NCBI RefSeq assembly: GCF_004010195.1
Contig: NC_057743.1
Location: 23,409,970 to 23,473,969, forward strand
From: Chiloscyllium plagiosum
Taxonomy: Eukaryota
DNA: 64,000 bases
Direction: 5' to 3'
Made by a program: the position numbers and the translations under genes. Below are positions 1 through 30,099 of this stretch, piece after piece. Every line of letters begins with the position of its first letter. The first letter of the stretch is position 1. Under the pieces are notes generated by a model that saw only the letters and a program-made list of their open reading frames with translations, searched no databases and was not told where the DNA came from.

Positions 1-283
1 AGTCAAATCCATCGAACTCAGCACCGCCTTCCTAACCTGCAATCTTCTTCCCGACCTCTCCGCCCCCACTCCCGTCTGACCTATCACCCTCACCTTGACC
101 TCTTTCCACCTATCACATTTCCGACGCCCCTCCCCCAAGTCCCTCCTCCCTACCTTTTATCTTAGCCTGCTGGACAAACTTTCCTCATTCCTGAAGAAGG
201 GCTTATGCCCGAAACGTCAATTCTCCTATTCCCTGGATGCTGCCTGACCTGCTGCGCTTTTCCAGCAACATATTTTCACCTCT
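1..283 (+). mobile_element. Penelope-like element 3' terminal repeat (family A)
   Basis: Near-identical to 6027-6310, which follows a GIY-YIG C-terminal ORF. Contains the hammerhead-like core at 191-218. Confidence 0.8.
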
Positions 284-3200
284 GTGACTTCAACCAACAC
301 CACTAAAACACAATTCTTTTGTACATGTTTGCTACATGTAAGTTAGAAGTGACTAATGTGATGAAGGGTGAATAGTATATAATTGCTATAGAATGTTACC
401 CTCCAGAAGCCATATTGCAATAAACTGAAGCTATTAAAGTTACAATCTATCAAATATAATTTGGGATTTAGAATTTAAAAAGAGGCAGATGGATGTGAGT
501 CAGTTTTGCAAAAGTATTTTTTAGCAGATCAGTAATGTTTTTAAACAGTGACCTAAGTGCATTAGTTCCAATAAAGTGTGTAACTGCAGTAAACTGCTTG
601 GCAGTCCTCTTTTAGTGTTAATTGTTGGAATATTCATACTGCTGAGTTTACACCAGATCAGAAAGCCATCAGGATTAGCTTTGAGTTAAGTTCAGAAGGG
701 ATAACAGTTTCTTCTAGCAGAAGAATTGAGTCTTTAGTTTGGGGAACTAGTCAACCTAGCTGAGGCTAGATATCTCTTCAAGTTCTTAGAACTGAATAGG
801 ATTATGAAAGTTTCATGATAGCAGACACAGAAAAGTCATAAAACTGTCTCTGCAATCCAAGGAGAATAAACTAAGAGGAGTCAGTTAAGCAAAAACTTAA
901 GGGTTGAGATAGGAGAGACATTTCTTTGGATTGAGTAGCTAGCTGTTAAAAGGATAGTGTTGGGGAACAGGTTGTTTTGCTGTTTCTATTAATATTTTTC
1001 CAACTCATTTATGGGATGTGGGTATTGTTGGCTAGATCAGCATTTGTTGCTATTCCTAATTTCCCTGAAGATGGTGATGAGCTGCTTTCTTGAAATGTTT
1101 TGGTCCTGCGGTGGTATTTAGAAGGGAGCTCCGAGATTTTGACCGAGAAGGTCCTGATTGTTTGTTCGGATATTTTCATCCTCTTCTGTTTTATGTTTTG
1201 TTGTTAAAGAAGATTTGGAGCCTCAGTGGCTAACCACCATGATAACCAACAGCAACAAAACCGTTCTGTCAAACAAGGTATCATTCTGAATCGGACTTCA
1301 TCAGTATAATTGGAATCACACTAGACTTCATAAGGTACTCCATTCGCTGTTATAGATCACCTTAGATAATTTGGAATGACTCAATTAAGAGTCTTTTTAT
1401 TTTCCTTCTTTTAAACACAGGAAGTAACTTGCACTGAGGTTTAATCAAAAAATGGACACATAACCAAAAGAGGCAATATTAGGAAAGGTGATCAAAGGTT
1501 TGGTGAAATAGTTGGATTTTAATTGTTTTTTTTTAAGATAGAAATGGAGAAGCATGTAAGTTTGGGAGTGAAACTGAAGGTTTATCTTTCAGATAGCTTG
1601 AAGTGCGGCTACCTAATGATGAAGAGAAGGGATGATTTATGAATATGAAGCCAGCTTCAGAGGAAGAGATTTTTGGGAGCAGTACTGTATGACAGGTGGG
1701 TGTAGAGATCAAGAGAGATGCTGTTGTAACACATCTTTGAACGTCATAAAAAGCCTACGTTCAAGTTCCACCTGACCCAGTGGGGTGTTGTAACACATCT
1801 GAACAGATCGATTAAAAATATCTATACAGAGTAGGAGGGACAAGGCCATAGAATTTGTGGACTAGAAAGGATACAAATTTGTAAATTGGAGGACCATAGC
1901 TATTTTACATTGTGAAAGCAGGCATTATGTAGAATAGGACATGACAGAAAAGTTCTAGATTAGAAGATGTTTACAGAGGATAGGAGGATAACCATGAGAC
2001 CATTGAAAATATTAAGTCCAAAAGTGACTTTGGCAAAGATATAAAATACTTCCATGGAAATAGATTAAAGCTGTAGCACTTAAGCAAGAAATAAGGAAAT
2101 AGAAATAAGATGATACGTGGTATACATTGCTGACAGGCTTTATTAGAGAGCATCAATATGCTTCTGCATTTAGAGACGTTTGTGGATATTGATACAGAAA
2201 GAAGATGACCTTAATGTTATTTCATAAGGACGTTCTGAGGTTTATGACTAATAGACAGAGGTTGGAACCAAAAAGGAATGGTTTTCTGAATGCAACTCAA
2301 ATTCATATTGAACATCAATTTATATTTACATAGCATCTTTAACAAAGAAAGATTCCAGGGCTTTTCACAATAGCAGTATAAAACAAACCATGACACTGAA
2401 CCATGTAAGATTCAGTTAGATGATCAAAATCTTGATCAGAGAAATTTGTTTAACGAGTGTCTAAAATGATGAAAGCAGAGAGTCAGTGAGACATAGGAAG
2501 TGAATACTAAAGCCTAGGCAATTGAAGACAAGGCCACCAAAGGTGGAGTGATTGTAACTGGAAAAAGACAATACACCAATCTGACCTCATACTGTTCCTT
2601 GATTACACAGCAATGAGAAGGGAGCAAAGGCAGATCTTGTCAACAGAATATTATAAACAGCAGTTCATGTTCAAAGGAAGTGAATCTATTGAAATTGTTT
2701 TTTTTTGTTTAAAGGCCACTTGTGAATTTTTCAAATAGTCTATTGTTGATTATTTTAAGATTCGCCCAACAAGAATTTAAATTAATAAAGCTCACTTGAC
2801 ATTTCAGAGGAATAATGCCATGAGGAGTAATTTTGACACTGTTGACATTAAGTAGATATTTGGACATGTGACTAATAGCTTTCCCAAAGAGGCCAATTGT
2901 AGGGAGGGTTTAAGAAGTGAAAGATGCAACAAGGTTTAGGGAGAAAACGTCAGAACATTATGCCTTAGGGAGCTGTAGGTGCTGGGTTATGGGGCTGCAG
3001 TAGTTCACAGAAATTGGGAGGAACAAAGGCAAGGAAGGATTTGAACACAAGAGAGAATTTTTAAATTTGAGCAGAGCTGGTCTGGAAACCAATATAGGTT
3101 AACATTCACAGAATAGTGGATGAAAAGGACATTGCAAGTCAAGAAATGCATAATAGTTTTGGAACTGTAATGTACAGAAAATGAAAGGTAGTTTGTTGGC

Positions 3201-3329
3201 TAGGAAAGTAATGAAATAATGCCAATAGTTAAAAAAAAACTTCCAGTAGAGGAGAAACATCTGGATAGAGTAGAGAGGGAGAAAATTGTCCCACTGGTGA
3301 AAGGATCAGATTTAAGAAAATGTCTATAT

Positions 3330-5246
3330 TTGAGGAGGCAGTGCTGGATGTCTTGAAATGCATGAAAGTGGATAAATCACCAGAAGCTAGAGAAATGATT
3401 GCTGGGCCCCTAGCTGAGATAAAGTGTTGCTGGAAAAGCGCAGCAGGTCAGGCAGCATCCAAGGAGCAGGAGAATTGACGTTTCGGGCATGAGCCCTTCT
3501 TCAGGAATGAGGAAAGTGTGTCCAGCAGNNNNNNNNNNNNNNNNNNNNNNNNNNNNNNCCACCTATCGCATTTCCAACGCCCCTCCCCCAAGTCCCTCCT
3601 CCCTACCTTTTATCTTAGCCTGCTGGACACACTTTCCTCATTCCTGAAGAAGGGCTCATGCCCGAAATGTCGATTCTCCTGCTCCTTGGATGCTGCCTGA
3701 CCTGCTGCGCTTTTCCAGCAACACATTTTCACCTCTGATCTCCAGCATCTGCAGACCTCACTTTCTCCCCTAGCTGAGATATTTGTATCATCGATAGTCA
3801 CTGGTGAGGTGCTGGAAGACTGAAAGTTGGTTAACGTGGTGCCATTATTTAAGAGAAATGGTAAGGAAAAGTCAGGAAACTATAGACCAGTGAGCCTGAC
3901 ATCGGTAGTGGACAAGTTGTTGGAGGGAATCCTGACAGACAGGATGTACATGTATTTGGAAAGACAAGGACTGATTCAGGATAGTCAACATGGCTTTATG
4001 CAGAGAAAATTATGTCTCACAAACTTGATTGAGTTTTTTGAAGAAGTAACAAAGAGGATTGGTGAGGGCAGAGCAGTAGATGTAATCGATATGGACTTCA
4101 GTAAGGCATTCAACTAGGTTCCCCACGGGAGACAGATTAGCAGGCTTAGATCTCATGGAATAGAGGGAGAACTAGCCATTTAGATACAGAATTGGCTCAA
4201 AGGTAGAAGACAGAGGGTGGTGGTGGAGAGCTGCTTTTCAAACTGGAGGCCTGTGACCAGTGGTGTGTCACAAGGATTGGTGCTGGGTCCACTACTTTTC
4301 ATCATTTATATAAATGATTTGGATGTGAGCGTAGGAGGTATAGTTAGTAGGTTTGCAGGTGGAGGTCTAGTGGACAGCAAAGAAGGATACATCAGATTAA
4401 AACTGGATCTTGATCAGATGGGACAATGGGCTGATGAGTGGCAGATGGAGTTTAATTCAGATAAATATGAGGTGCTGCATTTTGGAAAAGCAAATCTTAG
4501 CAGGACTTATACACTTAATGGTAAGATCCTAGGGAGTGTTGCTGAACAAAGAGACCTTGGAGTGCAGGTTCATAGTTCCTTGAAAGTAGAGTTGCAGGTA
4601 CATAGACCAGTAAAGAAGGCAGTTGGTATGCTTTCCTTTATTGGTCAGAGCATTGGGTACCTGAGTTGGGAGGTCATGTTGCAGCTGTACAGGACATTGG
4701 TTAGGCCTCTGTTGGAATATTGCATACAATTCTGGTCTCCTTCCTATTGGAAGGATGTTGTGAAACTTGAAAGGATTCAGAAAAGATTTACAAGAATGTT
4801 GCCAGGGTTGGAAAATATAGGGAGAGGCTAAATAGGTTGGGGCTGTTTTCCCTGGAGTGCTGGAGGCTGAGGGGTGACCTTATAGAGGTTTATGAAATCA
4901 TGAGGGACATGGATAGGATAAATAGACAAGGTATTTTCCCTGGGGTCAGGGAGTCCTGAACTAGAGGGCATAGGTTCAGGGTGAGAGGTGAAAGATATAA
5001 AAGGGATCGAAGGGGCAACTCTTTCCTCGCAGAGGGTGGTACTTGCATGGAATGAACTGCCAAAGGAAGTGGTGGAGACTGGTAGAATTGCAATATTTAA
5101 AAGGCATCTGGAAGGGTATATAAATAAGAAGGGTTTAGAGACCAAGTACTGGCAAATGGGACTAGATTAGTTTGGGATAACTGGTCAGCATGGACAAGTT
5201 GGACCAAAGGGTCTGTTTCTGTTCTGTACATCTCTACGACTCTACA
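3330..5246 (+). mobile_element. CR1-type LINE, 5'-truncated, degenerate ORF2 (RT)
   Basis: ORFs 3827-4117 (GNYRPVSLTS, QHGF, DFSKAF) and 4217-4831 (VTSGVSQG.VLGPLLF..YINDL, LYRTLVRPLLEYC), ending in a ctacgactcta-type 3' tail. Confidence 0.9.
3422..3766. mobile_element. Inverted Penelope-terminus element inserted in CR1
   Basis: Family A terminus in both orientations around a gap, flanked by the exact 15-bp duplication cccctagctgagata (3407-3421 / 3767-3781). Confidence 0.8.
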
Positions 5247-5719
5247 ATTGTCAAAAGAGGCAGTAAGTGACCTGAGGAACCTTTCACCCAGCCTATGGTT
5301 AGGTAGTGAATGCATTGCTAAGAATGTAGTGGAGGCAGGTTTCAAGCAGGAATTGAGTTGAATTGTAGTTTGAAAATGAAGAATTTGAATAGCAATGAAG
5401 GTGTAGAACCATGTGAATTGCTCCTTCAAAGGACCAGCACAGTCACAATGAGCTAAATGGTCTCCTCCTGTACTGTAAATTTCAGTGATGCTGCTGGCCC
5501 TGACTAAAGGCCTGGTCTGTACTGACCCAAAAATATATTTGACCATTTTAGTCTATGGTCATGTGACTAACATGAGGAATTACAACAAAGATTGTCAAGG
5601 TAAAAACAATGACTGCAGATGCTGGAAACCAGATTCTGGATCAATGGTGCTGGAAGAGCACAGCAATTCAGGCAGCATCGAGGAGCTTCAGCTTGTCATA
5701 CAACCACCCAAGTATCACA

Positions 5720-6630
5720 TGGAATCATACAGTTCAAAAGAGGCCATTTGGTCCATTCTGTCTGCACCAACCCTCCAAAACATGTTTCAGAGAACACCTC
5801 TGGGACACCCGGACCAACCAACCCAACCACCCTGTAGCTCAACATTTCAATTCCCCCTCCCACTCCACCAAGGATATGCAGGTCTTTGGACTCCTCCATC
5901 GTCAGACCACAACAAAACGACGGTTGGAGGAAGAACGCCTCATCTTCCGGCTAGGAACCCTCCAACCACAAGGGATGAACTCGGATTTCACCAGTTTCCT
6001 CATTTCCCCTCCCCCCACCCTGTCTCAGTCAAATCCATCAAATTCAGCACCGCCTTCCTAACCTGAGATCTTCTTCCCGACCTCTCCGCCCCCACCCCAG
6101 TCTGACCTATCACCCTCACCTTGACCTCTTTCCACCTATCACATTTCCGACGCCCCTCCCCCAAGTCCCTCCTCCCTACCTTTTATCTTAGCCTGCTGGA
6201 CAAACTTTCCCCATTCCTGAAGAAGGGCTTATGCCCGAAACGTCGATTCTCCTGTTCCCTGGATGCTGCCTGACCTGCTGCGCTTTTCCAGCAACACATT
6301 TCCAGCTCTGATCTCCAGCATCTGCAGACCTCACTTTCCGCTCCAAAACATATCCCCACCCAAATCCATACTCTATCCTTGTCTTCCCATTTTTTCTCTG
6401 GCTGATGCATCTATCTTGCACAACCCAGGAAACTGTGGAGATTTCTTTTGTATGGCCAATTCACCTAACCTGCACATCTTTGGACTGTGGGAGGAAACCA
6501 GAGCACCCAGAGGAAACCCACACAGACACGGGGAGAACATGCAAACTTCATAGACAGTTGTGCAAGGCTGGAATCAAACCCATGTCAAACCCATGTCCAG
6601 GCACTGTGAGCAGCACTGCTAACCATTACT
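5720..6630 (-). mobile_element. HE1-like tRNA-derived SINE (interrupted by the Penelope insertion)
   Basis: 6450-6630 is the reverse complement of the SINE body at 46431 and 58540; its CR1-like tail is split by the 5784-6340 insertion. Confidence 0.65.
5784..6340 (+). mobile_element. 5'-truncated Penelope-like element (GIY-YIG C-terminus plus terminal repeat)
   Basis: FREHLWDTRTNQPNHPVAQHFN...EERLIFRLGTLQPQGMN. 11-bp duplication ctccaaaacat (5773-5783 / 6341-6351). Confidence 0.85.
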
Positions 6631-7174
6631 TCCTACACCCTTTCAAGTTTCATGTCCTTGGCCCCCAACCTTGAATGTATGACAGTCAAATGCTTATCCA
6701 AGGGTTGTGAGGTTTCACCCTCCCAGGATATTCGGATAACGAAAAGAGCTGCTTATCTGATAGATCCTCACCTACACAGAAAGGTGAACTCAGTTTGTCA
6801 TTTTTAAAATATAATAACCTGAATTAGTTGTTACAAAGCCTGCGTTCAGATATATTTTCATTCCCTTAAAATTTTTCATCATATCTATCGGACATTGAGA
6901 GTTGGGGTTAGAAAGAAAAACTGGATATAATGTATCTAATATCAGATTAGGCCCCTATCCCTATTATGTGAAGATGCAGGACTTCGGTTAACATTAGGCA
7001 CAGGTTAGTTAGTCGGCCCCATGCACTGAGCTTGTGCCTCATGGACGCTTATGAGAGACCAAGCAATCTCTGGTACAACACCAAGCAATCTCTGGTCTGA
7101 CCAGAAATCATTGTCTGAACTGTTTTAACGTTAGTGATTCTGTTATTCGTTACTGGCACTTATTGAATTCGTAC

Positions 7175-7309
7175 CTTGTATACGTCGTAGGATTCAATCC
7201 TGGTATCAAAACACATGTACAAATTGTTCAACATCTCCACCACCTGCAGAGGCGTACACGAGGCAGCGATGGTGGTGAATCCTACAATGTCCGAGAAATA
7301 AATTGTCAC
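7175..7309 (-). CDS. Guanylyl cyclase catalytic-domain exon (atypical NIT-like GC gene)
   Basis: Not in the ORF track. The reverse strand reads cag|GTG...AAG|gtac, 135 nt, phase 0/0, encoding [45 protein letters not shown]. This is the start of a class III cyclase domain of GC type and continues in frame from ...VEAESYEQ of the 14557 exon. The next exon (expected VETIGDAYM) was not found in 1-7174. Confidence 0.93.
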
Positions 7310-10239
7310 CTGCCAACAAAATGTAAACGTGTACAGACGCTAAATTAAGAAGCTTGTATTGTTCCTCCAGTTCAAAGTCGCATACACTTCGCGAAACAAT
7401 GGTCCTGAATTTGGCCTGAACATTGATAACACATTCACAGTGAGAAGTAGGAGGCTGCAGTTTTCTGCAGGCCTACAATAGCAGCTACCATTGGACGGTG
7501 TATTAATGTACCCTACAGCTGGGTTTCTTTTGATTTAATCTTTTGATTCAGTAACTTGATGATATAAGCATTCTGACGTGTAATCCAGAGATTTTAAACC
7601 GAATGCATAAACTTTCCCAGATCAGTAACCCAACAGTTCCTTTCAAGGTCAATATCATAGAGTCTATGTAAAGATAGTGGTCATTCGGTTCATTGTGCCT
7701 TTATTGGCTCTTTGACAGAGCCACTTCAAATCGTAACTATTCACGATGTTCAAACTCCATTACCTTTTTCGCCAGTTCGCTTAACCACCTCTCGTCCATG
7801 CACCTTCCATGTGTATGAGTATCTCTGGATATTCTCGATATCCTTCATACTTTTGAACATCTCTTTCAAATTCCCCAACAGCCTCTGTTCTAAGGAAAAC
7901 CATACTTGCTGTTCCAATTTTCCTCTGTCTGAGATCCCTTCATCCGCGGTACCACTCCGGTAAATCTCAGCATTCCCCAGCCCCTCTCAAGGTTTTAATA
8001 CCCTTTCTGGAAGTTACGCGCTTAGAATTGCACACAACACTGACTTTCGCTTAACACGAGATTTAGAACGTTTTACTATATAGCACTCAAATAAACGCGA
8101 AATACTGCTACACTGGGAATGCTGCAGGAACTCGGCAGGACTGGCAGCATCTGTGGAGAGAGAAAGAGTTAACGTTTCGAGACCAATCTGTCGCTTCAGA
8201 ACCTGTGTTCTTCCTCTGAGTGTTAAAACTAAGGTTCCGAATTTCCATCACTGTACCTGACATCACTTGCAATAAGCTGAAAAGAACGGCTTCATTATTG
8301 CAGTGCAATGAGGCCCAAGTGGAACCTCTCGGGGTTGCATTGAGTTCCGACTGGACTCCCAGTGTTACCTCGTCCGTGATGCAGTTTAGATCTGACACCA
8401 CGAGGTACAAATGGATAGAAATTGAGGTTTAAGGATTTGCACTTAGATGTCACCAGTTGAGCTGGAACACAGCGCCTTTCATATTGTTAAGGAATTGGGG
8501 GGGTGAGCAGGATATTTTTCGCGCTGTACCTGAAATACAATGAGGTGCAGATATTGCTGGCAGCTGCGTGTAAACAGAAAGTGCAAGCCTGTTGAGTCTC
8601 CCAGAACTCCTTCCAACCACCGCAGATATCGTGTATTCCCAACGTAGGAAACTGGGCAATCAATTTGTTTTTGCACTGCATCCGGATAGCTGCTTATTTA
8701 TCATCCCCATTCTCTACATTTTCCTTAAGAACCAAAGATAGGTAATTGACTAATTATGTGTAATTATTTGCAAACAATGATGCCCTTGGGCAGCTTTCAG
8801 ATGCAAATAAACCCGTCCGGCTGGCCAAACCCGACAGTCATTTTGCTGCCTTGAAAAAGTGTTTTGGGCCTGCAACTCGAAATATCTTTTGAAGCTCGCT
8901 CTGCACAATTCCTGCTCTCTTTAAAACTGAGCTTTGTTACAGACTGTATTCGAGAACTGGTACTTGTCCCAACGTATCATGTTTTATTCTGCAATGTCCG
9001 GTAGGAATTTTCTAATAGCGATTTAATTATTTTTTTTTAAATTACAAAGTATTTTAGAAAATCATGCACTATAAGTCAGAAACGTTTAGGCGTACTTTGT
9101 TGCAAAGGCACAAGGTTTTTGGGTGGAACTGCGTATGGTGGTATTGCCTCGATATTATCAACACTGAATTAAATGCTGCACTCACTGGAAACCTCTTCAG
9201 AAGGATACGGAAATGAAAGCATAACTCGACTTGAAACACAACCATAGCATGCGTCAAAGTTCCTGAAATGTCCCCTACAAAGGATTCAGACAGTCGGATC
9301 AAATTCGAGTTCTACATAATTCTCCTACTGTTGGTTTAGCCAATTGCCAAAAAGTTTAAAATGATATGGTAAGAGCAGTTATACTGCAGTGTAATTCAAT
9401 GGCTAATGTCGTCATATTCTTCCTAAGATGTAAAGCCCCAAACTGGATACATAGTCTTATGGAGGCCAAACCAGTGTTTTATAAAGGCTCGTCATGACGT
9501 TCTTGGTTTACAATTGCTGTAAAAATGCTAATTTTGTTGAAGTCATCTTCACTCATCAGAATAATCTGCAAAAAAATGCCAAAGGAAAGGGAAAATAACA
9601 TTTGTTGTGTCAGAGAAGACAGTGCTTAATTGTTGACAAGTGGATTCTGAATGAGGAATGCATTAGTTAATGATGACTGATAGATAACTGCTTTAAAAAA
9701 AAATTAAACCAGGCAGATTGATTCTGATTAAATGAACCGGAGAATGGCTGTCACTTTCTTTTATATATTATTTAATGGAAAGCAGGCATTGTTGGCATTT
9801 TCTGCCCATCCTTAATTGCCCTTGAACTGCTAACTGGGCCGTTTCAGAGGACTGTTACATGTCAACCACACTGTGGATCCACAGTCACATGAAGACCAGA
9901 CAAAGCAGATTTGCTTCCCATTGGTGAACCACATGGTATTTTTTGACAATGATTCCACAGATGCCATTAGACTACCTTTAAATTTCAGATTTCATTAAAT
10001 TCAAATTTCACTGTTGCCATGCTGGAATTTGAATCCATATCACCAGAATATTAAATAAAAATAGGAAGTGCTGAAGAAATTCAGTCTGACAGCACCTGCG
10101 GAGAGACAAAACAGACGCAACACTACCAGTAGAATGACCCTTCATTAGACCTTCCCCAGAATATTAACCTGGATCTTTGAATTACTAGCGAAGTGATATT
10201 ACTACAATGTCACTGCCTCCCTCTAATTTGTTGAGTTGA

Positions 10240-11110
10240 AACAGGCATGTTATTTTCACCTGATAAGAAGGTGAAATTATTAATATTTGTAGCTTCCACT
10301 ATATGCAAGTGCACCACATTGCAAGCCAGACTGACAATGTCATATATTTGTTGTTGGTGTAATTCTTCACACACTAGGGTTTGCCCAGTCGTGGAGTCAC
10401 ATCTAATATTGAACACTGTTTTGTGAGTTTTGCAAGCATGGGCTAGTTGTGTGCAATTAGAACTTTGCTTGTTGTGAACAACCAAAGGGATATGCTGTTT
10501 GATATGATCCAGCAGCTTTGGGACTGACGGCTTACATACCAAGCATTGCACCAGAACTGAAGTGTATATACTACATTACTCATTTGTATATTATGTGAAC
10601 ATCTCTTTGGCTTGATGCCAGCATTCAGTTAATGGTGAACATCACTCATGCAACTACTGCTTAGAAACAGGGTGAGCTGGAAAGGTGAACAACCAACTTG
10701 GACTATATATACAAATTTTCTGATTAAGGCTAATTATATTGCTTGTGGAGCTGTATGAATACTAACATGTATATTGACCAGTGAAGGCAGGGTTGCAGTC
10801 AACAATGGCAGAGATCACCATGGCCAATTTTTCAACATCTTCGACATCAGGAGATGGAGCTTATTTTACTGCTAAATTGGCAAATTTGAACATGGGGGGA
10901 ATCTCATTAAGATGTGTAAATAACTTTTATACAAAAAGCAGTATGACCTCAGTCAATTTCAGCTCAGGCGGCTGCTTCCCAATCCCCTTTATACGTCCAA
11001 CAATTAAAAACATTCTTGATCCCAAAACTTTAACTGAGGTTTTGGCTGCCAGTGTGCCCTCTATTTTGTGTATTCTCACCTTTCTGAAAATCCCAATGTG
11101 AAGTTTATGC
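10240..11110 (-). mobile_element. Old, degenerate Penelope-like element (second lineage)
   Basis: Across frameshifts the reverse strand gives MLASSQRDV...QMSNVVY...C.AWYV...LLDHIKQHIP...CDSTTGQ...HLHIVEA, a decayed GIY-YIG endonuclease region. Confidence 0.65.
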
Positions 11111-11299
11111 TGTTTAATTGTCAAACATTCCTGGGCTCCTTAATCACTGGAGCAGTAACACAGTGAGTGTTTGTGTCTGAGCTCAGGAGATTAGGCAGAG
11201 ACACTACGGCTGACATCTCAACCCTAAACATAATCCCCAGCGTCAGCAGGCAACATGGAAGTATCATCCTGAATCGCAATTGGGCTACAGAAAGGAATA

Positions 11300-13580
11300 A
11301 GTGGGAAAGCAAGAAGTGAGAATGGCATAAAAAAGCTAAGATGATTATAGATAAGTTAAATGAGTAGGCAAAAACTTGGCAGTTGGAATGCAATGTGGGA
11401 AAATGTGAGGTTATGTACTTTGGCAGGAAGAATGGAAGAGCTGAATATTATTTAAATGAAGAAAATCCTCAAAGTTGCAACACAGAGGAATGTGAAGGTC
11501 TTTGTGCATGAATCATAAAAAGCTAGCATCCAAATTAAGAAGGAGTGTAGTACAAAAATGGGAATGCCTTGCTAAAACTATACAAAACACTAGTCAAACC
11601 TCGGAGAAAGTGAGGACTGCAGATGCTGGAGACCAGAGTTGAAAAATGTGGTGCTGGAAAAACACAGCAGGCCAGGCAGCATCCAAGGAGCAGGAGAATC
11701 GACGTTTCGGGCATAAGCCCTTCTTCAGGAATGAAGCTGGTGTGCCAAGCGGGCTGAGATAAAATGTAGGGGGGAGGGAATTTGAGGGAGGTGCGCTGGG
11801 AATACGATAGGTGGAAGGAGGTGAGGGTGAGGGTGATAGGCCGGAGAAGGGGTGGGGGCGAAGAGATTGAGAAGAAGATTGCAGATCAAGAGGGTGGTGC
11901 TGAATCTGGGGGTTGGGACTGAGATAAGGTGGGGGGAGGGGAAATGAGGAAGCTGGAGAAATCTACATTCATCCCGTGTGGTTGGAGGGTTCCTAAGTGG
12001 AATATGAGGTGCTCTTCCTCCAAGCGTCATGTGCATGTCCTTGGCGGAGTGGGAGAGGGAGTTAAAGTGTTCAGCCATGGGGCGGTTGGGTTGGTTGGTG
12101 CGGGTGTCCCAGAGGTGTTCCCTGAAACGTTCCACAAGTAGGCGGCCTGTCTCCCCAATGTAGTGGAGGCCACATTGGGTGCAGCAGATACAGTAAATGA
12201 TGTGTGTGGAGGTGCAGGTGAATTTGCGATGAATATGGAAGGATCCATTGGGGCCTTGGAGGGAGGTGAGGGGGGAGGTGTGGGCACAAGTTTTGCACTT
12301 CTTGTAGTTGCAGGGGAAGGTGCCGGGAGTGGAGGTTGGGTTGTGGGGAGTGCGGACCTGACGAGGGAGTTGCGGAGGGAGTGGTCTCACCAGAACGCTG
12401 ATGGAGTGGGGAGTGAAATATATCCCTGGGTGGCAGGGTCTGTTTGGAGGTGGCAGAAATGACGGAGGATGATACAATATATCCGGAGGTTGGTGGGGTG
12501 GAAGGTGAGGACCAGTGGGGTTCGGTACTGGTGGCAATTGGAGGGGTGGGGTTCAAGAGCGGAGGTGTGGGAAGTGGAGGAGATGCAGTGGAGAGCATCG
12601 NNNNNNNNNNNNNNNNNNNNNNNNNNNNNNNNNNNNNNNNNNNNNNNNNNNNNNNNNNNNNNNNNNNNNNNNNNNNNNNNNNNNNNNNNNNNNNNNNNNN
12701 NNNNNNNNNNNNNNNNNNNNNNNNNNNNNNNNNNNNNNNNNNNNNNNNNNNNNNNNNNNNNNNNNNNNNNNNNNNNNNNNNNNNNNNNNNNNNNNNNNNN
12801 NNNNNNNNNNNNNNNNNNNNNNNNNNNNNNNNNNNNNNNNNNNNNNNNNNNNNNNNNNNNNNNNNNNNNNNNNNNNNAGTCGGTCGGTTTGTAGTAAATG
12901 TCTGTGTTGAGTCAGTCGCCCAAGATAGAAATGGAGAGGTCTAGGAAGGGGAGGGAGGAGTCTGAGACGGTCCAGGTAAATTTGAGGTCAGGGTGGAAGG
13001 TGTTGGTAAAGTGGATGAACTGTTCAACCTCCTCGTGGGAGCACGAGGTAGCGCCAATATAATCATCAATGTAGCGGAGGAAAAGGTGGGGGGTGGTGCC
13101 AGTGTAGTCAAACCTCACCTGAAATATTGTGAACAGTTTTGGTCCCCTTATCTAAGAAAATATGTAGTGGCACTGGAAGCAGCCCAGGTAATGTTTACTT
13201 GATAGATTCTGAATCTGGGTGAGTTATTTTCTGAGGAGAGGTTGCGTTGGTTGGACTTGTACTGGTTGGAATTTAAAAGACTGAGAGGAGATTCTTATGG
13301 GACTTGATAAGGTAGATATGGAGAGGCTATTACCCCTTGTGGAAGAGTCCAGGACCAGAGGGCATAATTTCTGAGTACTGTAATAGGTTGCCCATTTAAA
13401 AACAGATGAGGATTTTTTTAGTGAATCTGTGGCATTCTTTATAGCGGAAAACTGGGGAGGCTGGGCAATTAAGTATATTCAAGGCTGGAATAGACAGATT
13501 TTGGTCAGTAAAGGAATTCAGTGTTGGGGGATAGAAAAGGGAAGTAGAGTTGAGGATTATCGGTCAGCCATGATCTCATT
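11300..13580 (+). mobile_element. Degenerate CR1 3' fragment hosting the Penelope insertion
   Basis: WQLECNVGKCEV..FG before the insertion; LYKTLVKPHLKYCEQFWSPYL is restored across it. Confidence 0.7.
11603..13104 (-). mobile_element. Penelope-like element (RT plus GIY-YIG), spans an assembly gap
   Basis: LFLRYIDD (RT, ORF 12912-13118) and CKTC...FTCTSTHIIYCICCTQCGLHYIGETGRLLVERFREH (GIY-YIG). Terminal repeat with hammerhead at ~11701-11728. 12-bp duplication tagtcaaacctc (11591-11602 / 13105-13116) inside a CR1 fragment. Confidence 0.9.
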
Positions 13581-14556
13581 GATAGACCAGCATCAGGAGG
13601 TGGCGAAGTGGACGTTTCAGGTGTAACCCTTCTTCAGGATCTGCATCTGCAGTTCTGTTTTGTCTCTAACCAAGTTTGTACCAAGACAAAGTCTCTTCAA
13701 AGGATGCACACATTTTGAAGAAGTTCTTTGCCCCTCCTGATGCTGCCTGGCTTGCTGTGTTCTTCCAGCCTCCTGCCTGTCTACCTTGGATTCCAGCATC
13801 TGCACTTTTGTTTTCATCCCTAAACACGATCTTATTGATGGCAGAGCAGACCCGATGGGGCTCTTGCCCCTACATCCTATGGTCTAAATGTGTTGAGGTT
13901 CTTCACTTCTAGACAGAGAGTGGCCTTCACAGGTGGGAGGAACCATGTTGAACTGAGCCTGAGGCAAACAGACTCCAACGGTTTCCCGAATGGATTCTGA
14001 AACGACAGAATCAAATTCAAACCAAAATCCGAACCATGGAGGCAGCTCAGCGCCGTACCCAGGGAAGTGTCATAACCACACGGAGTAGCCCAGACCAGGG
14101 CTGGGAGGGGGAGGTTTGCTCCGGCCATCCCACCCGTGGACAGCGCGGGTCAGAACTAGCCAGCCATGACCTGTATGAAGTTCACATTGAAACCACCTCA
14201 CTTTCGGATCCAACCCGTTTGACGCAACGTGTTATTGCAAAGTAAGACTGCAAATCCCTAACTTCAGGAGAGAGCTCCTGATTGGTCAGCTTAATTGAGA
14301 ACAGTCTAGACAGCGTTGGGGTGGGGATGGCTGTGGTCTTGTGGCCCAGTGATGGTGTCCCTACCTCTGAGCCAAGAGATCCGGGTTCAAGTACCCCCTT
14401 GGCGCCAGACGTTTGTAAAAACAGGTTCCTTGGAACATATCTAGAGATTGCTGGACTGACTATTCAGAGCGATGGCACCGAGCCACGGAGTAAGGTTAAA
14501 TAAAAGCGGAAAGTACTGGAGAAACTCTCTCTGGGGTGGGACCTCAAGAAAGCTAC

Positions 14557-15667
14557 CTGTTCATAACTCTCCGCTTCGACATGTTCGCGCCTCCTCAGCT
14601 GTTTCGCCACCGACTTGGGTAACATCTGATGCAGGAGGTCCTCGGCCAGGCGCCTCTGCAGCTTCAGCTCCTCAGTGCGCTCCTTCAGGCCCCGGGCATA
14701 GTTCTGGATCCATTCGGTCATCTGTTTGAAGGAGAGCAACACTATCGGGTAAATGAGGCAGGCGGTGCTCAACAAGGTGATCCGGAAGCTCACGGCAGAC
14801 AGAATGTCTCTGGATTTCTCTCGCATCGAGTCTGTGCTGATGTGAAGTAGACAATCCTGGATAAAGCTGATGTGGTGAAGTATCACATCCCTCTGGGACG
14901 TTTGAGACACCAGGTCAGTGGAAGGTATGAACTGACAGACTCCTTCACAGTCAGTAAAGTGGAGCGAGAGATTCATGTTCTTTCTGCAGCAGCCCTGCAG
15001 GTTTTCTGACATGAACAGAGCATGGTTCAGCCTGGTTGAGATTTGGTGCCATGTTGTCGGAGGATCCCCTGGTCCAGCACGCTGTGAGGAGGCTGCGAGC
15101 TGTGACCTGTACCACATGAACATCTCTTCCTTGGATCTAAGTACCATCCTGAGAGACAGCACATCTGCCCAGTCCTGGTTAGACCTGGCCAGGCTCAGGT
15201 CTCTTTCTGGGCCCTCGAGGGCCCTCAGTAGGTTGGAGATAATGGACGAGATGAGATTGTCCCCCTCATCCTCATCAAGCGGCCAGCTTGCAATCTCTGT
15301 GCTGCCATTCACAAACTGGGGACAAGGAAATTCTGCCTTCAAACAGCCCGAGTGGCTCTTCCGGATGGCGAGCGCCAGTTCTTTGCAGGTGCCCTGGATC
15401 CAGTCGCTGCTGTGGGTGACCGAGGAGCTGTTTGGATGCCACCAGACAAAGGCACGTTCTTCCTGCAGCCGGTTGATCAGGTGAAGGAGGAGAAGGTTTC
15501 TGCAGGAAGCCACAGCCTGGAGCGCATTCTCTGTCTCTCTCCACGTCCTCAGGCTGCTGTCCAGGTCAAGACAGATCGAGCCCAGCAAGGCGGCCAAGGA
15601 CAGAAGGCAAGCGGCTCCGATCCTGCGGACAGTGCGGTTTCCTCCCGCTTCAGGTGGGGGCACACAC
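14557..15667 (-). CDS. Large exon of atypical guanylyl cyclase: TM1, NIT-like loop, TM2, coiled coil
   Basis: ORF 14464-15663. Acceptor ttccctgtcttccag before 15667, donor CAG|gtagc after 14557. Hydrophobic IGAACLLSLAALLGSICL and FRITLLSTACLIYPIVLLSF, followed by KERTEELKLQRRLAEDLLHQMLPKSVAKQL (GC dimerisation helix / LLxxMLP motif). Confidence 0.88.
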
Positions 15668-17480
15668 CTGGAAGACAGGGAACAAGGTCAGGAAAAGCTG
15701 CCTTTGAGGCTGACCAGCCGCCGCTCTTACCAGAGAGTCTCAAGGCTGCAAGGAACCGTCAGTCAGCCACCCACTTACTGCCAGTGGGTGATCAGGTGAT
15801 GAAGCAGCGCTCCGAAAGCTAGTGCTTCCAAATAAACCTGTTGGACTGTAACCTGGTGTTGTGTGATTTTGAACTCTGGAGTGTCTGTGGGTGTCTCCAC
15901 GTTTCTCTGTCGCTCGGACTGCAAACATGTTACACCCCGGTTTTTGGCCAGTTTGACACAGTGCTGCTATCCACTTGTACAGAAAGAAAGGACTTTGTTC
16001 TTTTCTAAATAGTGAAAATGCAGAATGGGTAAAGAGATTTAAGGGCGAGGATCCCTGTACATAAATCGTTAAAATGTCACCACAAGGACAGAAAATAAAC
16101 CAGAAAGGCTTCTGGACTGCTGGCCTATGTAATTCGAGGAACAGGAAGCGCGGGAGCAATCTGCTGTTGAGACCACATCCAGAATACTGCCAGCAATTCA
16201 GACTACTACAGCCCTCAGGGAGGCTGTGTTAGCCTCGGAGGGATTTGCAGATTTTCTTTCTATTCGTTCCTGGGATGTGGGTGTCTGACCAGGCCAGCAT
16301 TTATTGCCCAGAGGGCCGTTAAGAGTCAATTCCACTGCTGCGGCTCTGGAGTCACATGCAGACCAGACCAGGTAAAGATGCCTACCTTGAAGAAGTTCTC
16401 TTCTCTCTACAAGAACCTCAGTGAGTCTCTCTCCCTCTCTCACTCACTGCAAACCCCAGGTCATCTCCTCTGCCCTGAAGCTGTTATTCTTGGCTACCTT
16501 CTCCTCAGTCCCACCCCACCCCCTACTATTTATCTCTCCACCCTGGGGGCTCCCTGCCTTCATTCCTTTCCTGCTCCTCAGTGCTGTCTGACCTGATGTG
16601 CTTTTCCAGCACCACTCTAATCTAGGTAAAGGTGACAGTTACCCTCTCTTATAGACATTAGTGAACCAGGTGGGTTTTTTTTCCTCCTGACCGTGGTCAC
16701 CATTAGACTCTTAATTCTCGATTTTGGTCGCATTCAAGTGTTATCATCAGCCACCATCCCATTGATTTTTGGAGCGAATTGAGAACGTGAAATGGCCTCT
16801 TGTTCCCCCTGCCGCTGTCACACGAGGTATCATTCTGTTTCCCTCTCTCTGTTTCTCTGAATTATTGTGCATCAGCGTCCCGCTCTCATTGTCAGGGCTA
16901 GGTTGTGACTTCGTGCGTGTGATCGTCGGTCCGAAGCCCACTTTGTCTTTCCTGCGATAGGAATAGAATGGGTTTGGGTACCTACCCCCTCACCCCTGTT
17001 ACACCATTGGATAAAGCCAAAATCTACCTCTCTCTTTGTGTTTGTTTCTAAATACACAGAACCGAGATGTTTTTAAGTAAATGTGGGTATATTCATTGCC
17101 AAATTACATATTGTGGTTTAGTTTCTGCTCCGAGTTAAACGGCTGTAAGAGTTCAGCGTGCATTCGTTTTAAAAGCGAGTAAATCAAATTCCTCTGTCAA
17201 ATGCAAAATTATTTTCAGACCTAGGGTCAGATTGCCATTATCTTGATTGTCCCAGGGCAGGAAGTGGTAAAGGAGTGCCTAAAAACTGCTACCTAAAATT
17301 ACACATAATCAACATTTTACTGAGTTGACGATTTGTGTTTTTTCATCAGAACAGCGATCATTCTGAGAGCCTGAAATCCCGAGTACATGCTCATCCCTCC
17401 AAAACCTTCAACAAAGGGTCAATGCCTCACATCTTCCCGGTCGTTTCCCGATTATTTTAGCTAACTTCAGAAGTCCCAGG

Positions 17481-17790
17481 ACACCAGGTTATAGTCCACT
17501 GGGAGAAAGTGAGGACTGCAGGTGCTGGAGATCGGAGTCAAGAAGTACGTGCTGGAAAGTGCACCCCTGATGTACAGCTTATGCTCAAAACGTCGACTCT
17601 CCTGTTCCTCGGATGCTGCCTGACCGGTTGTGTTTTTCCCAGCGCCACACTTATTTATGGTCCAACAGGTTTATTTGAAATCACAAGTTTTCAGAGCAGC
17701 TCCGAAAGCTTGTGACTTCAAGTAAACCTGTTGGACTTTAACCTGGTGTCGTGTGACTTCTGACCCCGTCCAACACCGGCACCTCCACAT
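17481..17790. mobile_element. Nested Penelope-terminus mini-elements (family A inside family B)
   Basis: The family B end acaccaggttatagtcca is interrupted by a family A fold-back and resumes at ttatggtccaacagg. Confidence 0.65.
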
Positions 17791-18765
17791 GGCTCCAAAT
17801 CTCGAGTTTTCCATTTTCCAGAGGAATGGTCACTCGACCCTAAATGTTAGCTCTGATTGCCCTCCACGGATGCTGCCAGACCTGCAGAAGCTTTCCAGCA
17901 ATGTTTATGTTTGCCTTTGCAGATTTCGATATTTTATTTACATTTGATGGCCGGGCGAGAGGCTAGTGTGTTATTTCGCCATCACAAAATTATTGCCAGG
18001 TTTATATTTAACACGGCCCAGGCCCAGCTCCGATTAGTCCGTTAATCAACGGAATTTGCGCAGGCGGACGGTGTTCGGTAAAAACAATAGTCACTTTGTC
18101 TCCATCAGATACCCCCGAGGCCTCCTCTGCCTCAGCCCCGCCGTTCGATGCCTGTTTCTGGGCTCTGTTCCGAGGTGACAACGCTCCCGGAGCCCGCCAC
18201 CATGATTCCGCTCCGCATCTCATTTCCCAACTTAATGTAAAACTCATCTCGGCTTGTGTCGCCGGAGAACTGAGTAGACCGCAGTAAATGTAAGATTTAA
18301 TTTCTGCCGGTTAGAAAACGGACCGGACTGATGGAGGTTAGTTAGGTAACAGTGGAACGAAACTGAAAATCTGCTGGAAATCTGAGATAACTCGACAAGC
18401 TGAAAAAGCTCAACATCGAAAACAAAATAGAGAACTGCGGAAATCAGAAACAAAAAAAAACAGAAATTGCTGTAAAAGCTCAGCAGGTCTGACAACATCT
18501 CTGGAGAGAAATCAGAATTAACGTTTCGGGTTCAGAGAGCCTCCCTCAGCACTGCAGTCAGCCGGATTTTCAAAAGGTTAATCTTTCTGAACTGACTGAT
18601 TTGCTGAGAATTTCCAATATTTTTTTTCGTTAAAATTCATCTGATCTACACACTGACCACAGGCGCCTGTTGAACCTCGTGTTCCAGTCTGTTTACCTGG
18701 AAATGTCACAGAGCGAGTCTGAAGCCGTGTCATGACATCCCTGATCCTGGGGCCGTTTCACTTAC

Positions 18766-18782
18766 CGACTCTGGATCGCCAT
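18766..18782 (-). CDS. Candidate first coding exon of the atypical guanylyl cyclase
   Basis: AAAGCC-ATG-G (strong Kozak), ATG GCG ATC CAG AGT CG|gtaagt. The phase-2 end matches the 15667 acceptor, giving MAIQSR-CVPPPEAGG. An in-frame upstream ATG exists at 18860. Intervening exons (e.g. starting at ~18269 or ~16951) cannot be excluded. Confidence 0.5.
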
Positions 18783-21700
18783 GGCTTTCCCTTTAGCGGA
18801 GGAAGGAGGCTGAACCCCCAAGGAGAAACCAGCCTCAATTCTCCAGCTGGCTGCAGACATGAGCACAGTACAGTGAGAGGTGAGCCAACACGAAACCCTG
18901 ACACCCGCCGGAATCTCTCAGTGCCACCTCGAGCCGGTGAGGATGGGCCCTGGCATCACGGGACTTGAAACCGCCACCGGAGAACCTGCAGCTGGCGGAG
19001 GGTTAACCGAACAGGGTCCGCCACTCGATGTGAGAGCGAATGAGAGGAAGAGGGAAGAGGATCCCATGTGGCCAAATGGAGCCAATGAAGTCACCACCAG
19101 AGAGAGAGAGAGAGATGGAAGAAAATCTCCCGCCAGCCTCCAGCCCTCAGTCAAACCACCACCAACATCACCCCCCCNCCCCCCTCCCTCCCAAACCCCA
19201 GCTCCAGACAGTCCCGGAGTATGGAAACCAGCATTGCTCTGAAGACAGATACTCGCCTGCATTAGACGTGGGAAGGTCACCTCTGGCTGTTCCTTCAGAA
19301 ACTATTTCCCTCTTCCCCAGGATTATCCTGGCCTTTCATCTCCACCTCCACTCTTTGCGAATCTGCCTCTGTGTTTTGCCTTAACTGTAGTTTAGGAAGA
19401 GAAGCGAATTCGTGGTTTTCGAAGGAATTGGATTCGGGGCGAAACGAGCGATATCCGTTCAGTCGTTTCCCGTTAGTCTAATTGCGCGGCTTGTTCTCTG
19501 GCTGCAACTGAAGTGAGTTTCCGCTGCAGGTGTCACAGGCGGGCGATGTGCTATCGTCAGGGAGAAAACTGGGGCTAAGATTCATTCCCAGCCTGCACGC
19601 TCCAATACTTCTTGTGCAAATAAATCGTTCCCAATCTCTCCCTCAGTACCACAATTAGCTCTCTCGAGTAATAAATTACATGGGTTCAGTTACACTCATC
19701 TCAAGCAGTTAAGATACACTTTGCAACTTTTTTTGATGTTCAACCAGAGAATAAAGACCATCTGACCTGACCATCCAGACTCCGTCCACCTGACAAAATA
19801 CTATGCCAGAGGCATCCCACCCGGGATACTGTCTGAAGTTTAAGGGCTGCAAAATAACATTCCACCGACAAAGCATAGCACTTCATACAAATATCATTTA
19901 ATGATTCGTAGAATAACCTAATCATCTTTTTGGAATAAAGTCTGTGAAAAAATCGACCCGGTAAATAGTAAGAATTCAATTCTAGCCACCATGTATCTGG
20001 TTAGGATTCGGCAGCCATTCCTGTCCACTTCCAGCCGTGGGAATTATTTTCCCCATTTCATAGCGCCTTCCAAATCCTTGGCCTCGACCAGATAAGACCA
20101 ACTGATAGATGGGAACACCACCACCTGCACGTTTCCCTCCAAGATGCATACCATCCTGTGTTGGAACTGTTTATTCACTGTCACTGAGTCAAAATCCTGA
20201 AACTCCTTCCATAACCGCTACGGGCACCCTCCCCCCCCCCACCCCAAACCCCCCAACCCCAGAGCTACAACAGTTCAGAAAGGCAGCTCCTCAGCCCGGT
20301 CTAAAGAGCAATTTAGAGATGGAGAATAGTTCAGAAAACTCCAAATCCCATGAACGAGGTAAAATGACATACTCGCCTGCATGGGCTGTTGTTATCGAAC
20401 AGATAGTGTAATTTTCTTTAAGCGAACTTTGTTTTAACCTCTTAAAAAGACAGGTAAGGAAAAGCTGACACTGACAATACACAAAACCTTATTAGAAAAA
20501 TCAAAACCCTAGGATTAAATTATACATTTGTAAGGTACACAAAATTGGGAAAGTTTGTTTTTCACCGTGTAAGCAAAGGACAAGATACAGTACACTTCAA
20601 CTAGACCCGTTATTTCGGAGGAAAAGGTGTATTATAATTAATATAATATTAAATACTGATCATAACTGATCATGAAGAGGTAGTTAGCTTAACATAAACA
20701 ACAAATGATATTTCAATTTACAAAAAGTTACTTCCATTTACAAAGTCCCCTGTCATATATTACATCTCGAATAGTAAAGAATAAAATGCAAAAATATAAA
20801 GACGACAGTTTTCGATGAACTTCAAGTTTATGAAGGCGCGGGCTGCCCAGGAGAACATTCACAAATGTTTCTGAAGGTAAACTGTTAGCATGGACTAGTG
20901 GCCAAACTTAAATCGAGACTGAAACATCAGTCCGAGCTCTGTACCTGTACTGCAAATGTACAGAGTGTTCAATAGGTGCTGGAAGGGAGCTGGCATTTAC
21001 AGCAAAAGCGTGAACTGTGAGAGTAATTTGTCCTATCAGCATCATGGAGCAATATGTGACAACATCGACCTTCACCGAACTTGTGCTTTTATGATTAAAC
21101 CTGAAAAGTGGACTCACCTTCAACCACTTAATTAATTCTATTTTATGCAGTGAGCCATCCGCTGTATAATTTCCGAGTTTGTGACCGAAATTGAATATTC
21201 ATTTTGTTGTGCAGTTGGAGATCAACTTGTTTGTTCTGACGACGCAGCATTTTACCAGAGGTCCTTTTGATGTTTGGAAATGGAGAGGACGATACAAAGA
21301 TAGTCCACCTGAGACCTACTCATATTCAGAGCCAGACAATATGCTGCACAGGGGAAGTCTGATGGAGTCGCCGCCAACAGGCAGAATCCTCGCCCGATTC
21401 CATCAGTTGCTCTCATACACAGTATCCGAACACGAAAAGACATCTGGATGGGTATATAAATAAGGGTTTAAGAGGGATATGGGCCAAGTGCTGGCAAATA
21501 GGACTAGATTAGGTTGGGATATCTGGTCGGCATAGACCAGTTGACCGAAGAGTCTGTTTCCGTGCTGTTTCCATCTCTATGACTCAGCTAAACTGCTCCT
21601 CCACCACTTAAACAAACATCCACTTGGAACGTGTAGGTCTTCAGTTGGACCCCAGCTAGAGCACTGTGCACACTTTGGGTTTCATTTAAGGAATAACATA

Positions 21701-27700: not shown

Positions 27701-28249
27701 GTTCACCTTCAGAGCCACTAAAAGTAACCGGTGTCACAAAACAGTTGTTCAATTTGGACATTGCTTCAAATCAGTCCGAAATTATTTATCTCATTTGATC
27801 TGCCCTTACATCAAATCTCCCAAAACATAATGCTGAGAGAGCAGGAAGGATCCCCTTCACCTGCACTCTGTGCGGATACCACACTTAAAACAACAAGCTC
27901 TGATAAAGCTACTTTATCAAGTATTTTGCGTTGATAATTTTTCAGTGGGTATAATTGAGCCAGGCACGCGGGCACACACACAAATACAAGCTTTGATTCT
28001 GCTCAACCCAAAATTTGTAGTGCAAACTAAAAAATTGATTTATGTCAGGAAGCATATTGTTCCAAGTTTGAATCAGGGTCCTTGTGCTGGCAACAAAGAT
28101 TAAAAGGTCTCACCAGAAAGAAAAACAAATCTCCTTTAGCACCACAGACCCACAGGCATTCCCATCTCAGAGAAAGATTGTAAGAGTCGGAATGTAGCAT
28201 GGCTCCCAACTAGCAAGCAGAGATGGGGAGTCCCACTGAAGATTTATAC

Positions 28250-29103: not shown

Positions 29104-30099
29104 CTGGAACAGAAAAAGGCAGATCATTGTGAACACTTAGCAAGATTCACTCTCATCCCCTCAGCCTCAGGGCACACCGATATCCACAGAAGAATCTAGT
29201 TCCTCTAGTCAGCATGGCCCAGACCAAGGTGTGAAGGGGGTTTAGTGAGAAAAGGTGAGGAAGGTAAGACTAAGGTGATTGCAACGAATACAGTAGGAGT
29301 GGATGGATGGATGGATGGATGAGGGAATTAAGAGTGAGAGATGAGCAGGATGAGAGGGAGGCATGGTGAGAGGAATGTAACAGTGCAGATATAGCCACAA
29401 TCATGGTTTCAACCACTACATGGCATCAGGCAGCTTTTACATCAGTTCCTGTCCCACCACCCCTCCCTGCCACCCACAAGGTGTTAAATCTATGCAAAGA
29501 TGTCACAATGACACTGAAATGCACAGACAGTGGGATTATCATACACTCTGAATAATAGCTGAGAACTTGCATCAATGCAGACTAAGAAGTGAATCTCCAA
29601 GACCTCTTGGAATATGAATGCACTAAAGTGGTACTAACTCACTTAGGAAAGACTAATTTTCCCAACAAATGACAATGGGTCAAAGAGGTCAAATAACTTG
29701 AAACCAACAAAAGCACCTCAGAGAGCCGCAGGCTGTAGGTGATGTAGAACTGGTCTTACTGGTTCTGGGGGAAAGAGAGTAACTCATATTTCCGGAGTAT
29801 CAGAAGCAAACTCACTGACCAGCACCAAGGCTCTGCACCAACCATGCCAAAGGCTGACTTGATTGTTTTCAGCCCAAGCTTCATGTGTTGACTCACTATT
29901 AAATGTCACTGTTTCTCCCTGCTTTGGTAAAAAGCTGATCACACCATTAGGAGCTTGGCTGTTTGGATCGGTGTCAATAGTTCATTCCAATTTGTTTCTG
30001 AAGGATGTATACAACGCTGTCTCGAACGCAGAAACAGTGAACTTGTGGGCAGGAGTAGGCTATTTCAATTTGCTTCAACATTCAAATCAAATCAAATTG

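Follow-up and report, generated by a model that had tools for sequence, protein, structure and literature searches.

The window analyzed in this work is a 64,000-nucleotide stretch of the Chiloscyllium plagiosum genome (assembly GCF_004010195.1, contig NC_057743.1, positions 23,409,970 to 23,473,969 of the forward strand), and it carries on its minus strand the first exons of a gene for a guanylyl cyclase (GC) in which an ectodomain of about 260 residues lies between two transmembrane segments (TM1 and TM2). Vertebrate cyclic GMP (cGMP) signaling is usually described in terms of soluble nitric oxide (NO) receptors and single-pass receptor cyclases. The gene of this shark is real and encodes no kinase-homology domain, and it is apparently a conserved, undescribed receptor-type cyclase of vertebrates, a non-canonical NIT-GC that is both orphan and degenerate. 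As judged from sequence, its product is very probably an active GC derived from that lineage.

Gene Model and Encoded Protein

Splicing of the minus-strand segments 18766–18782, 14557–15667 and 7175–7309 yields 421 stop-free codons, the last residues being YDVYK. GT donors are present at all three exons and AG acceptors at both internal exons, with phases 2 and 0, so that the exon joining proposed by a first-pass annotation, made from the letters alone, is borne out. The joined protein contains, in this order, TM1, the 260-residue loop, TM2, a signaling helix and the start of the cyclase domain. Exon 2 (14557–15667, 1111 nt, supported by its open frame and a Pfam HNOBA match) encodes everything up to and including the signaling helix. 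TM1 (15565–15621) and TM2 (14725–14781) were assigned by hydropathy to exon-2 residues 16–34 and 296–314, falling respectively within helix 11–53 and the continuous helix 256–348 of the structural model described below. Between them, the putative degenerate NIT-fold ectodomain (14782–15564) contains nine cysteines, six of which are invariant in the family, and three sequons (NSS, NGS and NLS); the two hydrophobic segments, the cysteine count and the sequons are as the first reading had given them, and the stretches LHLINRLQEER, LRMVLRSKEE, LLHQMLP and FSDIVGFT that it had named are each present in the translation. The signaling helix, or coiled coil (14596–14724), ends with LLHQMLP, and exon 3 (7175–7309) encodes the initial 45 residues of the guanylyl cyclase domain, from FSDIVGF to YDVYK (Pfam Guanylate_cyc, E 2.9e-12). 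Among the matches listed, exon 2 shares 82% identity with a close relative and 63% with Scyliorhinus, and exon 3 is 100% and 97.9% identical to its two closest relatives. No additional cyclase exon turned up in 1–7174, whether by motif scanning or by tblastn queries from 12 relatives; therefore the gene continues past the edge of the window, and the second half of the cyclase falls outside it. The downstream catalytic exons, whose absence or disruption had been named as a possible sign of a pseudogene, are thus missing from 1–7174, and the full GC motifs are found in orthologues.

Cyclase Domain and Signaling Helix

In the window protein Pfam recognizes HNOBA, which corresponds to the signaling helix (residues 319–357), in exon 2 and Guanylate_cyc in exon 3. 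The distance from the YP motif of TM2 to SDIVGF is 72 residues in 33 of the 34 orthologues in which it could be measured, and therefore there is no room for a kinase-homology domain; the spacing and the Pfam result both uphold the earlier statement that this domain is lacking. The window itself shows only the first Asp motif, in exon 3, and the other catalytic motifs were read in orthologues, of which 51 were examined and 31, the basis of the following counts, reach past GIHTG. PRYCLFGD and TVNTASRMES are each present in 31/31, FSDIVGF in 28/31 and YKVETIGD in 28/31, with Lys replacing Glu in one. Class III cyclases employ a metal-binding Asp pair, a Glu and a Cys that specify GTP, and an Asn and an Arg acting on the transition state. 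Read against this general chemistry, the protein is predicted to be a GTP-specific class III enzyme of the homodimer type. The best sequence match of the signaling helix in the PDB is NPR1. Beyond the cyclase, and outside the window, a tail motif SVQNDSLVCH was observed in 23 of the 31 orthologues, many full-length orthologues terminate near LPGxV, and a similar sequence, NDSMVC, is visible in invertebrate members of the same clade.

Phylogeny of the Cyclase Domain

The tree was built from the 83 of 110 candidate proteins that had a long enough cyclase match (235 columns), leaving out 27 candidates, lungfish and Scyliorhinus included, as well as the partial cyclase of the window; its sampling is biased by the searches used, and GC-C, retinal and olfactory GCs are missing as named rows. 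The 13 vertebrate rows form one clade (support 99/98, bootstrap values not being fully settled), which joins (98/87) seven Pfam-NIT-negative, kinase-less cyclases of invertebrate type that include three named gastropod proteins. The group so formed falls within neither the 24 receptor GCs (100/100) nor the six soluble GCs (100/99), and its sister consists of the 33 Pfam-positive NIT-GCs together with the receptor GCs (97/75). Constraining the vertebrate proteins and the receptor GCs into a single clade, a grouping taken from the refutation named in the first-pass annotation, was rejected (p-AU 0.024), and a single clade of all two-TM forms was not (p-AU 0.32). The earlier expectation that the cyclase would group neither with NPR-type nor with soluble GCs thus agrees with the tree. 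The proteins P0142–P0218, P0229, P0300 and P0310 are two-TM, kinase-less cyclases of invertebrate type with Cys-rich loops that the Pfam NIT model misses; the set includes Biomphalaria, Bulinus and Elysia and reads as an overlooked degenerate NIT-GC branch.

NIT Ancestry of the Ectodomain

The loop was compared with NIT domains at the level of profiles, language-model features and fold. A profile of the loop alone, built from 49 vertebrate rows, matched a profile of 41 invertebrate NIT domains with an hhalign probability of 83% (E 8.5e-6, score 42.8), the control scores being 10.8 for the reversed profile, at most 16.3 for 30 column shuffles and at most 27.2 for 30 block shuffles. The match places LI..LQ..R and W..V..L.L.L..KE in register, and the profile alignment with NIT-GCs is colinear from end to end. 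When 1.84 billion representatives were searched with a profile, 200 proteins were obtained at E<=1e-10, of which the best 150 were used, 122 of them distant; among the 80 of these 122 that were scanned, picked by length, Pfam NIT was found at E<=0.01 in 55 and above the curated cut-off in 47. That profile included TM2 and the signaling helix, for which reason the test was repeated with the loop alone, in the comparison given above. A hidden Markov model (HMM) of the vertebrate loop scored only weakly against 64 distant relatives (best E 4.5e-4, compared with 0.013 for the best of the reversed controls). Comparison of ESM features over residues 30–295 returned NIT for 27 of 30 matches, and a whole pigeon orthologue retrieved first a chordate cluster and then NIT-GC clusters at 0.98.

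The AlphaFold model (pLDDT 82.7) is almost wholly helical, helix 256–348 running unbroken from the end of the sensor through TM2 into the signaling helix. NasR, the nitrate sensor of Klebsiella, was the top match in three separate fold comparisons. Foldseek placed it first with a probability of 0.99, and it ranked first among 48,161 chains (Z 11.9, root-mean-square deviation (rmsd) 5.3, 229 residues aligned), the next chains having Z 9.5 and being aligned over 91–143 residues. A canonical invertebrate NIT-GC, folded as a control, gave Z 27.5, rmsd 3.5 and a Foldseek E of 8e-6 against NasR; therefore, in the models, the sensor domain of the shark appears much reshaped relative to that of a canonical NIT-GC. 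At the sequence level, a PDB search with the vertebrate profile returned cyclase signaling helices only (nine sequences) and no NasR, which an invertebrate NIT-GC profile does find (E 4e-11). Further evidence comes from the Pfam-negative relatives, 6 of 22 of which match a metazoan NIT profile at E<1e-3, as against 0/22 for reversed sequences. Four of them belong to the clade containing the vertebrate proteins (P0149, 6e-8; P0148, 1e-5; P0146, 1e-5; P0218, 3e-4) and two lie outside the tree sample (P0147, 1e-16; P0143, 6e-7); where aligned, these relatives also are without the arginines discussed in the next section. Taken with the tree, these matches indicate that the vertebrate gene belongs to an old, degenerate NIT-GC branch.

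Several observations weigh against a NIT origin of the loop. The window protein has no match to Pfam NIT (PF08376) at E<=10, NIT is likewise missing from the Pfam families displayed for 49 members of the family (25 out of a total of 29), and none was found in seven further proteins scanned; such negativity would explain why surveys missed the vertebrate gene. The local profile match spans only the first 124 columns, and single vertebrate loops match the invertebrate NIT profile weakly (best E 1e-4; 0.044 for the window protein). The highest ESM score, 0.91, rests on 166 shared features and is uncalibrated for parts of proteins, the Foldseek E of 0.064 is not significant, and Z 11.9 is below the value of about 13 that the comparison tool asks for in helical bundles. 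Moreover, no match was seen (score 10.6) between the vertebrate loop profile and a pooled profile of 20 invertebrate loops negative for Pfam NIT; the pooled profile itself matched NIT only at E 0.016, both results probably reflecting poor alignment of the pool. Each test is thus modest, and descent of the ectodomain from NIT is supported by the agreement of profile, ESM, fold and tree. Of the earlier proposal to verify the domain by Pfam and by fold, the first part turned out negative and the second gave NasR as top match.

Ligand Pocket and Proposed Mechanism

According to PMC9581486, nitrate is bound in NasR by two arginines located on adjacent helices, and the response is abolished in the constructs named R50A and R176A; primers printed there read LQCERG and GQ-RAL, in agreement with both NIT motifs. 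PMC7496416 describes E175 and R176 as lining the pocket. As we read it, the R176A primer printed in PMC9581486 alters the residue preceding the Arg, and both residues are absent in the vertebrate loop. The first motif of the window protein, LQEER (15454–15468), keeps the Arg that aligns with R50, as do 36 of the 42 vertebrate rows with a residue at that position, and the preceding Glu is found in 14/42. In the region of the second motif (15109–15132), where canonical NIT domains have KExxGxER, the window protein reads KEEMFMWY. GxER, equivalent to E175/R176, occurs in 0/49 vertebrate rows, an Arg standing in the aligned column in 4/48; in the 41 invertebrate NIT domains the corresponding counts are G 35, E 24, R 28 and, for the following G, 41. 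Six cysteines are nearly invariant in the vertebrates (41/41, 42/42, 44/44, 44/45, 49/49 and 49/49), compared with 0–4 in invertebrate NIT domains. The loss of GxER in all 49 rows and the six fixed cysteines together make the sensing of nitrate or nitrite by the vertebrate protein appear doubtful. Thus, of the two NIT signatures previously noted in the loop, the LQxxR Arg stands and GxER does not, and a nitrate/nitrite sensor in the manner of NasR is not upheld.

We propose the following mechanism. The loop would face outward or into the lumen, glycosylated and held by about three disulfides, and two chains would dimerize via the signaling helix. An extracellular ligand would shift the helical bundle of the sensor, TM2 would relay this shift to the signaling helix along the single helix 256–348, without a kinase-like relay, and the cyclase dimer would make cGMP. 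The ligand is the least sure element; it would have changed, given the loss of one half of the oxyanion pocket, and would be something other than nitrate or nitrite held between two arginines, most likely a peptide or a small metabolite. We slightly prefer the reading in which neither nitrate nor nitrite is the ligand, and to the whole statement, namely an orphan cell-surface cyclase of the NIT-GC lineage conserved in jawed vertebrates and working by this mechanism, changed ligand included, we assign a probability of roughly 0.55.

Two features of the pocket speak against a changed ligand, namely the retention of the first Arg and the presence of a basic residue (R/K/H) at exon-2 position 173 in 49/49 rows, which might contribute to an altered anion site. 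The protein could then still be a sensor of nitrogen oxides (nitrite, nitrate or NO) that relies on the retained Arg together with this relocated basic residue or with reactive cysteines, all the more as NasR is its top fold match and as Platynereis NIT-GC1, as reported in bioRxiv 2023.08.02.551600, makes cGMP in a NIT-domain-dependent manner after addition of an NO donor. The complete absence of GxER, at a position whose NasR equivalent is described in PMC9581486 as needed for the nitrate response, and a fold match far weaker than that of a canonical NIT-GC (Z 11.9 vs. 27.5) make this explanation unlikely, if the most serious competitor of a changed ligand. Somewhat less probable still is an ectodomain that persists as a structural relic, on an enzyme that is constitutive or is regulated intracellularly or through a partner protein. 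The loop is about 35–45% identical between vertebrate classes, compared with about 90% conservation of the cyclase, and most of the positions that are invariant in the loop are occupied by Cys or hydrophobic residues, as a relic would predict; against this, the loop has kept its length, its six Cys and both the LQxxR and the WxDV motif from sharks to wallaby, which suggests a constrained function.

First Exon and Competing Donors

The first exon probably starts at ATG 18860 rather than at 18782 as initially annotated, the ATG at 18782 being an in-frame internal Met. Exon 1 escaped an HMM built from the N-termini of bony vertebrates and was located by tblastn with one close relative: the full-length protein P0126, which is 57% identical over exon 2, aligns from its first Met to 18860–18697 (E 3e-11). 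This alignment crosses an in-frame TAA at 18764–18762, where P0126 has a Lys. Exon 1 as probably used (18766–18860, minus strand) thus encodes a short cytosolic N-terminus and ends at the donor CG/GTAAGT, and the remainder of the ancestral exon (18697–18765, minus strand) contains the TAA and an older donor, AG/GTAAAC, of the same phase, after 18697. Splicing from CG/GTAAGT with ATG 18860 gives an open frame of 447 codons, and splicing from the older donor a protein truncated at 32 residues. When 600 GT sites were ranked by U1 pairing energy, a crude score based on the U1 motif as generally known, the new donor came third and the old one fourteenth. A single apparent A-to-T change creates both the premature stop and the consensus donor that bypasses it, leaving the exon 69 nt shorter.

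A stop within a region homologous to the first exon of a relative, together with an intact older donor, could signify that the C. plagiosum gene is a recent pseudogene or a null allele, or that the stop is a sequencing error. This appears improbable, as the very bases forming the stop also create a stronger donor through which the frame is restored, exon 2 is open over its 1111 nt, and exon 3 is identical to that of the closest relative. Exon 2 shows no excess of rate with respect to the closest relative (16 vs. 16 changes, p 1.0), and 61 of 65 conserved columns are kept in both proteins. Since the new donor restores the frame and exon 2 is not relaxed, the shark gene is probably functional with a shortened N-terminus.

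Comparison With Known Systems

The NIT-GC architecture, in which the sensor is located between two TM segments and followed by the GC domain, is defined in PMC7400543, and Anantharaman 2006 (PMC1592074) reports NIT-GCs in insects and sea urchins; the family is known across invertebrates. Moroz 2020 (PMC7400543) states that NIT domains were lost in vertebrates, and Jokura et al. (bioRxiv 2023.08.02.551600) place Chordata among the phyla without NIT-GCs. The vertebrate gene contradicts these published statements of loss. A highly derived NIT-like cyclase is also reported for Mnemiopsis (PMC10073611). No description of the vertebrate gene was found in the literature searched, a body of texts that left out most subscription journals.

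The proteins of Trichoplax, Platynereis (NIT-GC1/2), arthropods, mollusks and echinoderms share with the vertebrate protein the sensor flanked by two TM segments, the signaling helix, the GC domain and the lack of a kinase-homology domain; the vertebrate protein is colinear with them from end to end and keeps LQxxR. Unlike them, it has no Pfam NIT, has lost GxERAxG, has six fixed Cys instead of 0–4 scattered ones, and belongs to a separate clade together with Pfam-negative invertebrate genes. Accordingly, the first-pass claim of a NIT-GC retained in a jawed vertebrate holds as regards a two-TM, kinase-less protein of NIT descent but not as regards a canonical member, given that Pfam NIT and GxER are missing. 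The similarity to NasR NIT (PDB 4AKK) extends across the domain (model residues 25–287 on residues 9–287 of the chain); the R50 position is kept, whereas the E175/R176 equivalents are lost and the rmsd is 5.3, vs. 3.5 for the canonical NIT-GC. The shark protein is membrane-bound and coupled to a cyclase, whereas NasR is coupled to ANTAR. With the single-pass receptor GCs (NPR1/GC-A, NPR2, GC-C and the retinal GCs) it has in common the homodimer-type GC domain and the signaling helix, but it has two TM segments, no ANF-receptor or kinase-homology domain, and a separate place in the tree. The signaling helix (the Pfam HNOBA tail) and the cyclase fold are also common to the soluble GCs, from which it differs by its membrane anchor, by the absence of H-NOX and by its position in the tree (100/99).

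An unrelated helical bundle resembling NIT by convergence would fit the negative Pfam result, the non-significant Foldseek value, the fact that helical bundles attain Z near 13 by chance, and the position of the vertebrate clade as sister to, not nested within, the Pfam-positive NIT-GCs (97/75). We consider this quite improbable in view of the two matched motifs, which are colinear and at the right distance from TM1, and of the matches of Pfam-negative invertebrate relatives to the metazoan NIT profile. Descent from NIT, which is preferred here, means that a disguised member of the NIT-GC lineage, invisible to Pfam, persists in vertebrates, and would make it a case in which disulfides were used to rebuild a bacterial-type sensor for what is probably another signal. 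Zebrafish, Xenopus and birds carry the gene, so that this orphan receptor, for which cGMP offers a simple read-out, is open to knockout and ligand screening.

Distribution and Gene Neighborhood

A search with exon 2 gave 186 matches among 7805 candidates, 120 of which were listed and 48 of these used, identified by source name or gene id. Orthologues among the matches listed come from sharks, bowfin, many teleosts, lungfish, frogs, a caecilian and a newt and, among amniotes, from turtle, snakes, gecko, birds and the tammar wallaby. Named entries are zebrafish LOC110440024 and coho salmon si:ch211-215j19.12; in the databases orthologues are labeled "uncharacterized LOC" or mislabeled as NPR-like or gcy-like. 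The idea of a cGMP sensing route absent from mammals is refuted by the wallaby orthologue (P0056), whose cyclase motifs are intact, and that of a relic of cartilaginous fishes by the occurrence of the gene across jawed vertebrates. No named placental sequence was present among the 120 of 186 matches listed. Since we know of no such gene in the human and mouse cyclase catalogues, loss in placental mammals is likely.

The upstream neighbor on the same strand is KIAA2013 (28244–35032, minus strand), recognized by Pfam DUF2152 on 33950–35029 and 28247–29146. Beyond it, on the opposite strand, exons of a PLOD (lysyl hydroxylase) gene are found at about 44591–45558 (plus strand), which we take from the known gene order to be PLOD1. 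In human, KIAA2013-PLOD1 presumably adjoins NPPA/NPPB, which would place the cyclase in that interval. A catfish gene model fuses KIAA2013 and then the cyclase, and a bird model (P0124, Pitangus) gives the order KIAA2013, trypsin-like protease gene, cyclase and ANP-family peptide; the order of KIAA2013 and cyclase is conserved. The trypsin-like protease gene was not found in the shark window by tblastn. Longer fused forms (2 of 8000 scored proteins) were read as gene models wrongly joined to their neighbors. The adjacency seen in the bird model could suggest a receptor or co-receptor for the natriuretic-family peptide encoded next door, the least probable of the alternatives considered, as the family has no ANF-receptor domain, linkage alone is a weak argument, and invertebrate sister genes share the same architecture. 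More broadly, and tentatively, jawed vertebrates from sharks to marsupials may possess a third GC class, a heme-free, kinase-less two-pass receptor encoded beside the natriuretic peptide genes and lost in placentals, which would convert an unrecognized extracellular signal, either a nitrogen oxide bound in a remodeled pocket or an as yet unknown hormone, into cGMP.

Other Elements in the Window

Retroelement fragments occur at 11725–12552 (minus strand), 4184–4831, 30264–31238 and 51598–52422 (all plus strand) and comprise a GIY-YIG endonuclease, presumably Penelope-like, reverse transcriptase and the endonuclease of a long interspersed nuclear element (LINE). Repeated element ends were observed at 1–284, 3454–3737 and 6027–6310. 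Assembly gaps (N runs) are located at 3529–3558, 12601–12877, 19178 and 37630–38126, all of them outside the identified coding exons.

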